Made by a program: the position numbers and the translations under genes. Below, piece after piece: positions 1-28,028 of a stretch of DNA of 28,028 nt; positions within the stretch are counted from its first letter, which is position 1, and every line of letters begins with the position of its first letter. The DNA is from Escherichia coli (GTDB lineage: Bacteria > Pseudomonadota > Gammaproteobacteria > Enterobacterales > Enterobacteriaceae): the NCBI RefSeq assembly GCF_003334335.1, contig NZ_QOWQ01000050.1; one strand, written 5' to 3'. The notes under the pieces are model-generated. The model saw nothing but the letters and a program-made list of their open reading frames with translations, had not been told where the DNA came from and did no database searches.

Positions 1-197
1 TCCCACTACTTATTTGGTGGACACCACTTTGTCTAATTCGTCAGATTCTGACCAGACGGTTCAGGCTGTACGCTTACGGATATTTCGATGTGTTGTCAAC
101 CACGCTTTTCATCTCTTTTGCCAGCGACAGCATTTTTTCATCGTCATAGGTGAACTGATATTTATCGGTAAGCGTCAACAGAGCGCCGTATTGACAC

Positions 198-1810
198 TTA
201 TTTATCGGTGAAAACTACGTTCCATGGCAGCAGTTCGTCAACACGGTTGGAGGGCCATTCCGGCAGTACGCTCAGGATATGGCGCAGATACGCTTCTGGA
301 TCGATACCGTTCAACCGACAGCTCCCGATTAGTCCGTACAGCAGAGCTCCGCGCTCGCCTCCATGATCGTTGCCGAAGAACATGTAATTCTTTTTCCCGA
401 GACAGACGGCACGAAGCGCTCTTTCTGCTGTGTTATTGTCCGCCTCCGCCAGACCGTCATCACTGTAATAACAGAGGCCGTCCCACTGATTCAGGACATA
501 GCTGAACGCTTCGCCCAGTCTGGATTTTTTCGACAACGTGCCATTCTTCTCCACCATCCATTCATGCAGCGACGTCAGTAACGCTTTGCTTCGCTGCTGC
601 CTGGCTGCAAGACGTTCAGACTCCGGTAAGCCCCGTATTTCATCCTCGATGGCGTACAGTTCACTGATTCGCTTCAGAGCTTCTTCTGCCGTCGTACTTT
701 TGCTGCTGATGTATACATCGTGTATTTTTCGCCGGGCATGGACCCAGCACGCAACTTCTGTCTGTGCACCACCTTCACGTTTGGCACTGAACAGCCGATC
801 GTAACCGCTGAATGCATCCGCCTGCAGGATACCCCGGAAGGGACGAAGGTGTTGTACCGGATGTTTTCCCTGCCTGTCTGGTGAGTAGGCGAACCAGACC
901 GCCGGTGGCTCTGATGAGCCCGCATTCCGGTCATCCCGGACATACGTCCAGATGCGTCCTGTTTTTGCCTTTTTTCTGCCCGGTGTCAGCACTTTTACCG
1001 GTGTGTCGTCAGTGTGAACCTTGCGGGTGTTCATTACATAACGGTACAGGGCATCATTCAGCGGAGTCATTAACTGGCAGCACGCGTCAACCCAGTTGGA
1101 GATTAATGCACGGCTCAGTTCGGCACCCTGTCGGGCAAAGATTTCACTCTGACGATACAGTGGCAGGTGTTCGCAGTATTTTCCCGTTAACACGCGGGCA
1201 AGTAATCCGGAGCCCGCGATGCCGCGCGCTATCGGGCGGGACGGCGCTGGCGCTTCAACTATATAGTCACATTTTGTACAGGCTTTTTTTACCCGAACAG
1301 TGCGGATCACTTTCAGGGCGCTACTCACCAGTTCCAGTTGCTCAGCACTGACTTCACCCAGATAATCCAGCTCACTGCCACACTCCGGGCAACAACTTTC
1401 TTCAGGCTCCAGGCGGTGTATTTCACGGGGAAGATGTGCTGGTAACGGACGACGATGACGTGACTGTCGCAACTGGCGGGGAACCTGCGGGTCATCCTCA
1501 CTCCCACTGTAACGATCGCTTTCCTGTTCGCGTTGTTTCAGTTGGGCCTCAGCCTGTTCAACCTCACGCTGCAGTTTTTCAGAACGGGTACCGAACAGCA
1601 TCCGGCGCAGTTTTTCTATCTGGGCCCTCAGATATTCTATTTCCCGCTCCTCCTCTTCGATCTTTTCTTCGGCACGTGCCAGTGCAGAGCGCAGGAAGGC
1701 CCCGTCTCTTCAACCAGACTCAGTTGCAGATCTCTCTGACGGAGGGCTTCAGCCTGCTCAGAGAGCAGCCTTTCCAGCTCAGTGATACGAATGAGGTATT
1801 TCCGACTCAT
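198..1810 (-). pseudogene. tnpC: IS66-family transposase TnpC, disrupted by a frameshift
   Basis: N-terminal 57 codons (MSRKYLIRITELERLLSEQAEALRQRD...) from the ATG at 1810 run into a stop at 1637-1639. The remaining 467 codons (ORF 198-1601, MLFGTRSEKLQ...LPWNVVFTDK) are in another frame that is open up to a stop at 1710-1712. The shift therefore lies in 1640-1709, most likely a 1-bp deletion near 1700. Confidence 0.8.
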
Positions 1811-1840
1811 GACCGTTTTTATAATCCGGCCATGACATTT

Positions 1841-2191
1841 TTACAACATTGTCAGTGCGTTAAGACGGGATGTTTTTGGCTGACGCCAGTCCAGCTTATC
1901 GAGGAGCATTGCCAGCTGCGAGCGGGTAATGGATACCTTACCGTCACGCACCGCAGGCCAGATAAACTGGCCTTCCTCCAGGCGTTTGGTGAACAGGCAC
2001 AGACCATCAGCATCAGCCCAGAGGATTTTAATCATGTTACTCCGTCGGCCACGGAAGATGAACAGGTGACCGGAGAAGGGGGTCTCATCCAGCACATGTT
2101 GTACCTGTTCACCCAGACCGTTGAAGGATTTACGCATATCAGTAACGCCGGCAACCAGCCAGATTCGAGTGTCTGATGGGAGCGAGATCAT
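1841..2191 (-). CDS. tnpB: IS66-family accessory protein TnpB (orf2)
   Basis: 116-aa ORF (MISLPSDTRIWLVAGVTDMRKSFNGL...) characteristic of IS66 orf2; start overlaps the tnpA stop by 4 nt. Confidence 0.85.
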   Translation of the reverse strand: MISLPSDTRIWLVAGVTDMRKSFNGLGEQVQHVLDETPFSGHLFIFRGRRSNMIKILWADADGLCLFTKRLEEGQFIWPAVRDGKVSITRSQLAMLLDKLDWRQPKTSRLNALTML

Positions 2192-2613
2192 CGCCCCCTC
2201 CCGGTCAGTTCACGGATCAACACCGTGAGCAGCTCTGGTGAAGGATTTTCCAGCGTCATGTTACCGTGGCGGAACTCAACTTTACAGGAACTGGCACTGA
2301 CTGTGCTTTGTGAAGGAGTGGATAAAAGCGGAGTAAGAGCCGCCATAGGCTCTTTCTGCTCATCAGGCGTTATCTCAACAGGTAATAATTCAACGCCAGC
2401 GCCAGAAGAGGTTGTTACCGGAAGACGCCGCGATATACGCCCTTCGTTCTGCCAGAGCCTGAGCCATTTGAACAGGAGGTTATCATTGATATCGTGTTCC
2501 CTGGCAATACGGGCAACAGAGGCTCCTAGTTGTGAAGCCAGTTTAACCATTTGAAGTTTAAACTCATTTGAAAATGTTCTGCGGGGTTCTGCGGATAATA
2601 TTTTCTGTTCCAT
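2188..2613 (-). CDS. tnpA: IS66-family accessory protein TnpA (orf1)
   Basis: 141-aa ORF (MEQKILSAEPRRTFSNEFKLQMVKLASQLGASVARIAREHDIN...) with helix-turn-helix-like N-terminus typical of IS66 orf1; first gene after the terminal repeat. Confidence 0.85.
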   Translation of the reverse strand: MEQKILSAEPRRTFSNEFKLQMVKLASQLGASVARIAREHDINDNLLFKWLRLWQNEGRISRRLPVTTSSGAGVELLPVEITPDEQKEPMAALTPLLSTPSQSTVSASSCKVEFRHGNMTLENPSPELLTVLIRELTGRGR

Positions 2614-3274
2614 AACAGGTGTCCACTAGTTGATGAAAAGGTGGGCACCTACGTTACCAATACTGGCTTAATGGCTACATACGGCGGTCAGTTTACGCTT
2701 ACCATGTATCTGGCGAGTGAAGCTTTATGTCGTGTTCTGGCGTGTCCTGTGTTAGTTAGAACACGCCATCGATGGTCAGCAGGTTCATATTGCACCAGAG
2801 CGGATACAGCGTGGTGTTATGTCAGGGCTGCGCTGTTTACGTGAACACGTGGCGTACGGCCCCGCTTCCTGGCCGCTGCTGGGCATGGATCACGGCGCGA
2901 CAAAGGGGCGACTACCTGGCAGCATGTGTCCAGCCGGTTCACAATCTGGTGAAGGTTCCTTACGCTCATGGGCCATACTGATAATTCACCAGGCCATCAT
3001 TTCCAGAGGAAGACGCCGTTTGCGTAGCGTGACAGTGTCGGACTCTTCAGGGCTGTGGGTAATCAGTTCCGGGGCAAGATAGTCGCAGAGGGTTACGCAG
3101 AGAATGGTAACTGGACACTGGATCGATCAACCGATCCTTAACTGAGCGGCATGACAGCTTTCTGATGGTTTTTTTTTGATAATCTTCACATTGTGCTTCT
3201 TTTCTGTTGGATAATCTTTGTACTTGGTGGTGTACTAGGTATCCCATTATGCAGTTAAGTGAAGGTGATTAAAA

Positions 3275-27164: not shown

Positions 27165-27193
27165 TAATAACAAAACGCTATCACTGACGGTAG

Positions 27194-27238
27194 AATACGT
27201 TGCCACTGCAACTCCTGGCGGAACAGTGGCAACGTATT
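27194..27238 (+). terminator. strong hairpin 3' of iha (terminator-like)
   Basis: Perfect 15-bp inverted repeat aatacgttgccactg (27194-27208) / cagtggcaacgtatt (27224-27238) with 15-nt loop, 30 bp after the iha stop. No strong U-tract. Confidence 0.5.
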
Positions 27239-27348
27239 AGGTTAAGTGCATTTCCGATCCGCTAATGAGATTTCGTTACCAACAACTAATATCGTCACAG
27301 GAAATGCACGGATTATTTTTAACTTATCATTTACATACTTGTCCAGAG

Positions 27349-27737
27349 TGTAAGCGCACCGTGAAGGACGTGGGGTAAAAATTAGTTTACAGAGAGAGTG
27401 ACGTTCCAGGGCAACAACTCTTTCATGCGGTTGGCAGGCCAGGTGTTGATTACACTGATCACGTGGCGTAGCCACGTTTCCGGCTCGATTCCGTTAAGTT
27501 TTGCAGCTACCGATCAGGCTGTACATCACTGCCGCACTATCGCTCGTCATCTCAAAGTCCGGTCTCGTCAGCAGGAAGGTATCATTCTCTCCCGCCATTT
27601 TTCCGGGGGCCCGGTCAGATAAGTCCCTTTGTCTATCGCTGACTCCTGGCTCATAACCCGGTTAGCAGAATGCAGGGGCACCACCTCGCCACGACCGAAT
27701 CCGGATAAGTCAATTGCACCTTCTCAATCGCCATTTT
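27349..27737 (-). pseudogene. divergent IS66-family remnant: terminal repeat plus frameshifted TnpC C-terminal fragment
   Basis: IS66-like end tgtaagcgcaccgt at 27349. Minus-strand translation gives ...LIGSCK / LNGIEPETWLRHVISVINTWPANRMKELLPWNVTLSVN*, colinear with the TnpC C-terminus of the other copies (LIGTCRLNGIDPEAYLRHILSVLPEWPSNRV.ELLPWNVV) but interrupted by a frameshift. Truncated at 27737 by the next IS66 copy. Confidence 0.55.
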
Positions 27738-28028
27738 GGTAAGCGTCAACGGAGCACCGTATTGACGCTTATTTATTGGTGAGTACTACGTTCCATGGCA
27801 GGAGTTCGCCAACTCGGTTGGAAGGCCATTCCGGCAGTACGCTCAGAATATGGCGCAGATACGCTTCCGGATCGATACCGTTCAGACGGCAGGTGCCGAT
27901 CAGCCCGTACAGCAGTGCACCACGCTCGCCGCCGTGATCGCTACCGAAGAGCACGTAATTTTTCTTTCCGAGACAGACTGCACGAAGCGCTCTTTCCGCT
28001 GTGTTATTGTCCGCCTCCGCCAGACCGT
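27738..28028 (-). mobile_element. second IS66-family element (partial, continues beyond window end)
   Basis: Terminal repeat GGTAAGCGTCAACGGAGCACCGTATTGAC at 27738, then tnpC 3' end in the same layout as copy 1 (repeat to stop = 31 bp in both). Roughly 85% nucleotide identity to copy 1 by eye, so a different isoform. Confidence 0.85.
27769..28028 (-). CDS. tnpC: IS66-family transposase TnpC, C-terminal part (5' end outside window)
   Basis: Frame is open to the window edge and ends ...GALLYGLIGTCRLNGIDPEAYLRHILSVLPEWPSNRVGELLPWNVVLTNK*. The ORF track's Met at 27954 is internal. Confidence 0.8.
   Translation of the reverse strand, partial: GLAEADNNTAERALRAVCLGKKNYVLFGSDHGGERGALLYGLIGTCRLNGIDPEAYLRHILSVLPEWPSNRVGELLPWNVVLTNK

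Follow-up and report, generated by a model that had tools for sequence, protein, structure and literature searches.

Two same-orientation IS66-family elements around a nan–aerobactin–iha segment of a mosaic phe-tRNA island in Escherichia coli

Introduction

The plasmid pColV-K30 carries an IS1-flanked aerobactin operon, an arrangement for which a composite transposon was suggested. The window analyzed here likewise has an aerobactin locus between IS copies; it differs from pColV-K30 in the IS family and in the plasmid location of the latter, whose IS copies concern the ~9.5-kb aerobactin module alone.

Chromosomal islands of the GI-pheV / PAI iuc-iut type are composed of modules (nan, shiF-iuc-iutA-sat, flu, and yee) that have IS elements between them and are lost one module at a time (PMC11537424; PMC7545054). 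In ST131, these module-wise losses have been attributed to the flanking IS elements (PMC11537424). In Agrobacterium pAt15955, two tandem IS66 copies deleted a 270-kb segment by homologous recombination, and the surviving IS66 elements of pAt15955 and pAtAch5 have nonmatching 8-bp flanks (PMC6778807).

Here, we analyze a 28,028-nt stretch of E. coli contig NZ_QOWQ01000050.1 (GCF_003334335.1; one strand), which we call the window. A first-pass annotation had described two IS66-family copies in the same orientation around its nan, shiF-iucABCD-iutA, and iha genes and had proposed that recombination between them could delete, amplify, or mobilize the whole module. We find that the window is an unexceptional segment of the known GI-pheV / PAI iuc-iut mosaic island. 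As in those islands, nan, shiF-iucABCD-iutA, and iha follow one another in the same order, the modules are IS-separated, and a P4-type integrase lies at a phe-tRNA; the phe-tRNA and P4-like integrase were read from genomes near-identical to the window. Unlike in those islands, sat and the inverted ISEc43/IS3 are missing between iutA and iha in the window lineage, which instead has an extra ISEc43 (copy 2 below) and, on the integrase side, sigA as in the strain 55989-type island.

The pair resembles that of pAt15955 in being a same-orientation IS66-family pair around a large segment, and the flanks of its left copy resemble those of a postdeletion survivor. Unlike in pAt15955, where recombination was observed, the copies are 14% diverged, and there are no deletion derivatives in 5,426 genomes. 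Both copies share with the IS66 family (IS66, IS679, ISEc8, ISEc23, and ISEc43) the tnpA-tnpB-tnpC order, a TnpC of the NF033517 type, and GTAAGCG termini, to which copy 2 adds a target-site duplication. Copy 1 departs from family members in having no duplication and, in the window, a broken tnpC.

Results

Presence and absence were counted in 5,426 complete genomes, plasmids were drawn from a set of 72,556, and IS fragments were compared by tblastn and blastn. The closest genomes, near-identical to the window, are NZ_CP145698 (L001) and NZ_CM129862; the L003 and L007 loci were compared solely through annotation tables. The features of the window are as follows.

1–77, minus strand: right terminus of a third, intact IS66-family element (CGCTTAC at 71–77; L001 9640–12077)
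78–167, no strand: 90-bp orphan between two IS66-family elements
168–2702, minus strand: copy 1, IS66-family, 2,535 bp, termini GTAAGCG/CGCTTAC
2188–2613, 1841–2191, and 198–1811, minus strand: tnpA, tnpB, and tnpC of copy 1
2703–3173, minus strand: degenerate IS4-like remnant, ~75% identical to the right 565 bp of K-12 IS4
3275–12175, plus strand: nan module, 38–41% GC
12234–21971, plus strand: aerobactin module, 51–56% GC
21972–25073, no strand: AT-rich spacer, 35–40% GC, with pseudogene debris
25074–27164, plus strand: iha (siderophore receptor/adhesin)
27350–27730 (also given to 27737), minus strand: left end of degenerate IS66-like remnant X
27731–27738, no strand: left copy of the 8-bp target-site duplication of copy 2, CCATTTTG
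27739–28028, minus strand: first 290 bp of copy 2 (tnpC 3′ end, ISEc43-type), cut by the window end

Comparing the window with itself for repeats aligned 167–457 with 27738–28028 at 89% identity, and this search, together with annotation, bears out the two same-orientation IS66-family copies around nan, shiF-iucABCD-iutA, and iha. The possibility that the second copy is a short fragment was checked in both closest genomes, where copy 2 is a full 2,532 bp, has tnpA-tnpB-tnpC complete, and is annotated as ISEc43. Both copies have the IS66 family gene set, with tnpA and tnpB homologs in the expected order, and their TnpC proteins match profile NF033517 at 436 and 443 bits (cutoff, 180). The C-termini VFTDK (copy 1) and VLTNK (copy 2), from which a related but diverged pair had been deduced, are present on the reverse strand, and precise alignment agrees: copy 1 and full copy 2 are 85.8% identical in nucleotides, and their proteins are 87.3% (TnpC), 93.1% (TnpB), and 76.6% (TnpA) identical in amino acids. 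At 14% divergence, uninterrupted identity extends over 52 bp at most, and 19 such stretches reach at least 25 bp. By this alignment, copies 1 and 2 are different IS species of the IS66 family. They are almost the same over their terminal 24 nt, the inverted repeats of both start with GTAAGCG, and the outer ends of the two copies combine correctly as a left end and a right end.

Copy 2 represents a simple, private insertion and has its own target duplication. The duplication, CCATTTTG, is a perfect 8 bp, with its right copy beyond the window at L001 42264–42271; the sequence to the right of copy 2 begins CCATTTTGTCACAATT (also given as TCACAATTAAGTTTGATAAAGCAGG). The target was remnant X, in which a GTAAGCG terminus is preserved at 27350 and what is left of a TnpC C-terminus at 27384–27534. 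L002 has the exact, uninterrupted empty site. Across the 5,426 complete genomes, the site is occupied in 19 and empty in 814, counts that leave out two further 80%-coverage matches, in which the IS66 element is another one, ~150 bp from the site. Strain 55989, FDAARGOS_944, and SCPM-O-B-12142 have copy 2 but lack both copy 1 and nan. The duplication also fixes the element boundaries: the elements placed at 167–2703 and from 27738 by the first-pass annotation are real, and their ends move by one base, to 168–2702 and 27739.

Copy 1 had been called complete, which holds for its structure but not for its tnpC. In the window, a 1-nt deletion near 1702 reduces this gene to a 467-aa open reading frame in place of 537 aa; tnpC is intact in both NZ_CP145698 and NZ_CM129862, and the frameshift is private to the window. 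The genes of copy 2, which lie outside the window, are intact in relatives. With the true ends applied, copy 1 is flanked by ATTTATCG and CATGTATC, which match at 1/8 positions, so that the imperfect flanks tatttatc/catgtatc reported earlier were one base out of register, and no target duplication is found around copy 1 when its flanks are compared in register.

We find that copy 1 is an old, fixed neighbor of the nan module. On the inner side, its junction with the cargo is present in 674 of the 5,426 genomes, Nissle 1917 among them, a number matched by the genomes that have the IS4 stub at at least 99% identity (673); the IS4-like remnant is truncated exactly at the right end of copy 1. The outer junction seen in the window occurs in only 16 of the 5,426 genomes. 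The left flank of copy 1 in L002 is a wholly different sequence, and that of L010, a 1.49-kb deletion derivative, differs too. The outer side of copy 1 has probably been reshuffled repeatedly, which would account for the missing target duplication. Mismatched flanks had been ascribed to an old insertion or a later rearrangement, and a variable outer flank beside a fixed inner one favors the latter. On this outer side, the 90-bp orphan has no match in the other loci compared and is absent from L002, L004, L006, L009, and L010. The third IS66-family element, just left of the window, has a TnpC ~58% identical to those of copies 1 and 2.

The cargo falls into no fewer than three independent modules: nan, shiF-iuc-iutA, and iha. 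The nan module encodes N-acetylneuraminate lyase, ManNAc kinase, an MFS transporter, hydrolases, a KdgM-family porin, Neu5Ac epimerase, NanR (minus strand), and sialate O-acetylesterase. The aerobactin module comprises a shiF-like MFS gene (12333–13526, minus strand), iucA (13662–15386), iucB, iucC, iucD, and iutA (19416–21611), and is followed by the AT-rich spacer, which has an 8-bp tandem repeat at 23126–23198. RefSeq annotation of identical sequence confirms nanA, nanK, the MFS gene, the porin, nanM, nanR, the esterase, the shiF-like MFS gene, iucABCD, iutA, and iha. GC content steps along the window through 52, 39, 53, 37, and 51%.

These modules vary separately among relatives. The nan module is missing in L004, L006, and L007; homology to the window starts at 12234 in L006 and strain 55989, and in the latter 12234–21971 is inverted. 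L009 has the order nan-IS3-iha, with the aerobactin module deleted. In L002 and L010, sat, an inverted ISEc43, and IS3 are inserted at 22311/24577, and in ExPEC-type islands the same set stands in place of 22311–24577. Plasmids, among the 72,556 compared, share only 12254–21760 of the window. Because cargo modules are independently absent, inverted, and interrupted in relatives, the 25-kb segment is not a unit. The islands also differ in location: in L001, the region is ~17 kb from a P4-type integrase and a tRNA-Phe beside yqgA/speC, that is, at pheV, and the L006 and L007 islands have a P4-type integrase and a tRNA-Phe beside dsbD, that is, pheU.

Both brackets occur together in 16 of the 5,426 genomes, all 16 with the full cargo and the outer junctions of the window; the locus is confirmed as pheV in one of them (L001). 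These same 16 are the genomes with the outer-left junction, and all retain the cargo, so that no deletion derivative is found among them. Since only 16 complete genomes have both brackets, the missing derivatives are weak negative evidence. A junction diagnostic of amplification or a circle (iha-side flank, IS, and IS4 stub) was found in none of the 5,426 genomes, where the best coverage, 86%, reflects normal junctions, and none of the 72,556 plasmids has at least 80% of the block. No duplication surrounds the pair as a whole, the outer flanks being ATTTATCG to the left of copy 1 versus CCATTTTG to the right of copy 2. The deletion, amplification, or mobilization of the whole module proposed earlier therefore finds no counterpart in these data: gain or loss as a unit is never seen in the 5,426 genomes.

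Discussion

We consider it highly probable that the window belongs to a mosaic phe-tRNA island in which two IS66-family species arrived independently at different times and in which the cargo is not a unit. On the left, the nan module would be bordered by copy 1 and the IS4-like stub, both ancient and fixed there. Copy 2, of the ISEc43 type, would have come later, by simple transposition into the IS66-like remnant next to iha, which is older, and would have made its 8-bp duplication in it; copy 2 appears restricted to a small set of enteroaggregative-like lineages. A left half with nan and copy 1 and a right half with copy 2 might then have been joined into a single island, giving the double-bracketed layout; recombination inside the aerobactin–iha region common to both would be the likeliest route. 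Each module would have its own history of gain, loss, inversion, and interruption, mostly via other IS elements (IS3, ISEc45, and group II intron carriers).

Copy 1 might also be the sole survivor of an earlier recombination, by deletion or inversion, between two copies of the same IS. This history is compatible with mosaic assembly rather than exclusive of it, and we regard it as plausible, if somewhat short of probable. Nonmatching 8-bp flanks are what the survivors of pAt15955 and pAtAch5 display (PMC6778807), the outer flank of copy 1 is variable and its inner flank fixed, and the upstream IS66-family element has no duplication either (ACAGAAGG/GGATATTT). However, a two-copy ancestor was not found, and an IS-adjacent deletion or illegitimate recombination, as in L010, would look alike.

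It is very unlikely that the IS66 pair makes the 25-kb nan–aerobactin–iha segment a composite transposon or a whole-block recombination cassette, and as an account of past events this proposal is largely refuted. It draws on the shared orientation, the nearly identical terminal repeats, the intact copy 2 of relatives, the 270-kb IS66 deletion in pAt15955 (PMC6778807), and the ST131 module losses ascribed to flanking IS elements (PMC11537424). Against it, the brackets are different IS species (85.8% nucleotide identity) and copy 1 tnpC is frameshifted in the window. The pair has no common duplication (ATTTATCG versus CCATTTTG), copy 2 having its own. The cargo is kept in 16/16 genomes with the outer-left junction, amplification or circle junctions number 0 in 5,426 genomes, and 0 plasmids have at least 80% of the block. 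The block is met only with the window's outer junctions, with the pheV locus confirmed in L001 only, and parts of the cargo vary independently. Brackets of the same IS, an outer duplication, and varied genomic or plasmid contexts, which together mark a composite transposon, are thus all missing, as are the near-identical direct IS repeats and single-IS derivatives of a pAt15955-type RecA deletion. Rare RecA-dependent deletion between the copies could occur in principle; at 14% divergence it should be strongly suppressed, and no trace of it is seen.

Returning to mosaic assembly, two further ideas concern what copy 2 and its target might do. Because the termini are near-identical and the outer ends form a proper pair, composite transposition via the copy 2 genes is mechanistically conceivable; that TnpA, TnpB, and TnpC of copy 2 act in trans to move a ~30-kb block as a compound transposon nevertheless seems most improbable. 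Separately, remnant X holds three independent same-orientation IS66-family insertions within ~150 bp. This ~150-bp stretch could be an IS66 hot spot in which elements home into the remnants of relatives, an idea to which we attach equally little probability. Least probable is that copy 1 went in long ago by simple insertion and that point mutations have since degraded its 8-bp duplication. The 6/8 match of tatttatc/catgtatc that suggests this needs boundaries one base away from the ones that copy 2 and the element in L009 prove; in register, the match is 1/8. The right flank of copy 1 is an internal IS4-like breakpoint, whereas of the two known left flanks neither resembles IS4, and in L002 the sequence on the left is another one altogether. 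Five or more substitutions within 8 bp are also implausible where the surrounding cargo is 99–100% conserved.

The IS pair should thus not be annotated as a transposon or as a mobility unit for virulence genes. What does travel between plasmids and chromosomes is the ~9.5-kb aerobactin module. The window illustrates how a phe-tRNA island is assembled from modules, with IS66-family elements gathering at module borders; this modular picture is already published for GI-pheV, and the significance of the present case beyond bookkeeping is small.

The stub to the right of copy 1 and the stub to the left of copy 2 were also considered as halves of one element and rejected as such, the first being IS4-like and the second IS66-like. 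Two pieces of IS66-family material had been overlooked in the first-pass annotation: the element end at 1–77 and the remnant at 27350–27737.

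IS elements at the borders of the cargo

The window is 99.9-100% identical to the chromosomes of several E. coli strains, e.g., SW070917 (NZ_CM129862) and S1-KEN-03-A (NZ_CP145698; locus L001), with L001 12001-40021 corresponding to window positions 1-28028. The gene order below combines the ORF list with RefSeq annotation of near-identical records:

IS66-family element (copy 1), leftmost; tnpC, tnpB, and tnpA on the minus strand
Transposase stub, after copy 1
Sialic-acid (nan) cluster of nine genes, after the transposase stub
shiF-like MFS gene, iucABCD, and iutA, after the nan cluster
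AT-rich debris, about 3.4 kb, between iutA and iha
iha, after the AT-rich debris
IS66-type tnpC stub, after iha
Second IS66-family element (copy 2), 290 bp present before the window ends

Steps in GC content coincide with module borders (IS, 52%; nan, 38-41%; aerobactin, 51-56%; spacer, 35-40%; iha, about 51%). The AT-rich spacer contains a tandem 8-bp repeat, TTTCGTAG, of about eight units (23126-23198). The window carries one unit more than L001, and repeat length is thus variable among near-identical strains.

The first-pass annotation described copies 1 and 2 as related but diverged, in the same orientation, and proposed that recombination between them could delete, amplify, or mobilize the ~25-kb module they bracket. 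Its description of the ends is borne out: 167-457 and 27738-28028 form a same-orientation repeat pair of 89% identity. Copy 2 might have been just a short fragment; in L001 it is complete (2,532 bp), with intact tnpA, tnpB, and tnpC, a product named as ISEc43 family, and CCATTTTG on both flanks. These flanks fix the IS termini as GTAAGCG...CGCTTAC, which places copy 1 at 168-2702 and the start of copy 2 at 27739. The alignment of the two copies that had been called for gives 85.8% identity over full length (65% to 93% across 200-nt windows; TnpC 87.3%, TnpB 93.1%, and TnpA 76.6% at the protein level). The first 24 nt of their terminal repeats are nearly alike. By the usual ISfinder convention, we take them to be different IS species. 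We show that they represent two IS66-family insertions of different species, independent of each other.

The alignment is also a mosaic. Identity is 65-78% at the tnpC 3' end and the tnpA-side terminus (alignment positions 200-600 and 2400-2535) versus 92-93% in the middle, a pattern that suggests past recombination among IS66-family species. In the window, copy 1 tnpC lacks one base near position 1702 and is frameshifted; it is intact (1,614 nt) in L001 and SW070917, the two closest complete genomes. This deletion, private to the window, could be a genuine mutation that inactivates the gene, or an error in the sequence.

The earlier IS inventory was right about copies 1 and 2 and overlooked three further features:

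1-77, end of a third, intact IS66-family element; TnpC about 58% identical to the others
2703-3173, decayed IS4-like stub with about 75% identity to the right-hand 565 bp of K-12 IS4
27350-27737, X, left end of an old IS66-like remnant; target of copy 2

The third element also lacks a target duplication. Between it and copy 1 lies a 90-bp orphan sequence (78-167) with an open frame, DKYQFTYDDEKMLSLAKEMKSVVDNTSKY, on the minus strand; it matched none of the other loci compared. The IS4 stub breaks off exactly at the end of copy 1, and the two known left flanks of copy 1 contain no IS4-like sequence. On its other side, the stub directly adjoins the nan cluster. In K-12 (MC4100), an intact IS4 (insG) similarly adjoins nanX (yjhB).

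Separate histories of the two copies

Copy 2 arrived late, as a private and simple insertion; its target duplication is present, and an empty counterpart of its site exists. Strain C 237-04 has the uninterrupted site (...ATCGCCATTTTGTCACAATTAAG...), with CCATTTTG present once only. Among 5,426 complete genomes, 19 have the occupied junction and 814 the empty site. Two more matches to the junction (at least 80% coverage) are an ISEc23-type element rather than copy 2. The X region beside iha holds three independent IS66-family insertions, in the same orientation and within about 150 bp (27350-27738; L001 42264-42400; AH21C062 locus L009, 6113-9190):

Copy 2; duplication CCATTTTG
Truncated element in L001; 110 bp further right than copy 2
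ISEc23-type element in AH21C062 (the one of the two matches examined); 149 bp right of the copy 2 site, duplication CCACAATC

The clustering may mark a hot spot for insertion.

Copy 1 forms an old, fixed edge of the nan module, and its outer side is unstable. At the corrected termini, its flanks (ATTTATCG and CATGTATC) match at 1 of 8 positions; the imperfect 8-bp flanks reported earlier (6 of 8) came from a register off by one base. The junction of its right end with the IS4 stub occurs in 674 genomes, including Nissle 1917, essentially the number (673) in which the stub is ≥99% identical. Across the 5,426 genomes, copy 1 has no empty site. While the inner junction is fixed, the outer one is variable: in C 237-04 the left flank is wholly different and ISEc45 lies inside copy 1. 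DA33137 (L010) has the window-type context minus 1.49 kb (L010 5990-6020 versus L001 11225-12712; about 16 bp overlap at the joint), with the tnpC of the upstream element joined to copy 1 position 713. Lost with this deletion are tnpB/tnpA of the upstream element, the 90-bp orphan, and copy 1's first 545 bp, which shows that small illegitimate deletions do occur between neighbouring IS66-family elements.

Non-matching 8-bp flanks are a documented mark of recombining IS66 copies on pAt15955 (PMC6778807), and the copy 1 flanks are likewise unmatched. Copy 1 likely experienced such recombination between IS66 copies or an IS-adjacent deletion, and its hybrid flanks would derive from an earlier IS-mediated rearrangement.

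The bracketed block as a unit

Deletion between copies 1 and 2 would retain the outer-left junction, and genomes with that junction were therefore screened for lost cargo. The window-type junction occurs in only 16 genomes, all of which keep 95-100% of 1-25000 (the two modules plus the spacer as far as iha). No genome among the 5,426 has the junction predicted for amplification or excision (iha-side flank, IS, IS4 stub); the best coverage, 86%, represents ordinary junctions. Every double-bracketed genome has the same outer-left and copy 2 junctions (n = 16; pheV confirmed as the locus in L001), the pair has no duplication at its outer flanks, and no plasmid carries the double-bracketed block. 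Thus, in a small sample of just 16 genomes, no unit-level gain, loss, or amplification was found, which tells against the proposed mobile module.

Recombination frequency falls off steeply as sequences diverge, and identical stretches of roughly 25 bp or longer are required. The copies do contain such runs (19 of at least 25 bp; longest, 52 bp), and RecA-dependent deletion between these 14%-diverged elements might occur, if rarely. Compound transposition via the near-identical outer terminal repeats is likewise conceivable.

We show instead that the cargo is modular, with parts varying independently. FDAARGOS_944, SCPM-O-B-12142, and strain 55989 have copy 2, iha, and the aerobactin genes without copy 1 or the nan cluster; in the two aligned, FDAARGOS_944 and 55989, window homology begins at 12234. 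Strain 55989 additionally has 12234-21971 inverted and pic inserted. AH21C062 has lost the aerobactin module (nan-IS3-iha), and ExPEC-type islands carry sat, an inverted ISEc43, and IS3 in place of 22311-24577. Among 72,556 plasmid records, plasmids share the aerobactin module (12254-21760), and none has ≥80% of the block.

Island context and proposed origin of the double bracket

A P4-type integrase and tRNA-Phe beside yqgA/speC (pheV) are found about 17 kb from the region in L001; related copy 2-bearing islands are at tRNA-Phe beside dsbD (pheU). The layout matches the published account of GI-pheV, in which nan (8.9 kb), shiF-iucABCD-iutA-sat, flu, and yee modules have IS elements between them; the same study reports module-by-module loss in ST131, which it ascribes to the IS elements flanking the modules (PMC11537424). 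A second match is the "PAI iuc/iut" family, whose insertion sites are paralogous phe-tRNA genes (PMC7545054). The first-pass observation was correct, but it concerns an ordinary, already described IS-rich border within a known island.

The left half of the window lineage is of CFT073/EC958 type (upstream IS66, copy 1, nan, aerobactin, and iha, without sat), and the right half is of strain 55989 type (copy 2, IS66 debris, and sigA). The lineage looks like a hybrid of the two. On the simplest account, two island variants would have recombined in the aerobactin-iha region they share, and the double bracket would have arisen through this joining.

Integrase-proximal content is nearly the same at pheV (L001 and locus L008) and pheU (FDAARGOS_944 locus L006 and locus L007), comprising an AAA protein, a traF stub, sigA, IS66 debris, copy 2, iha, and aerobactin. 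Relative to L001, FDAARGOS_944 and strain 55989 also carry an inversion of about 1.5 kb of IS debris that begins ~350 bp to the right of copy 2.
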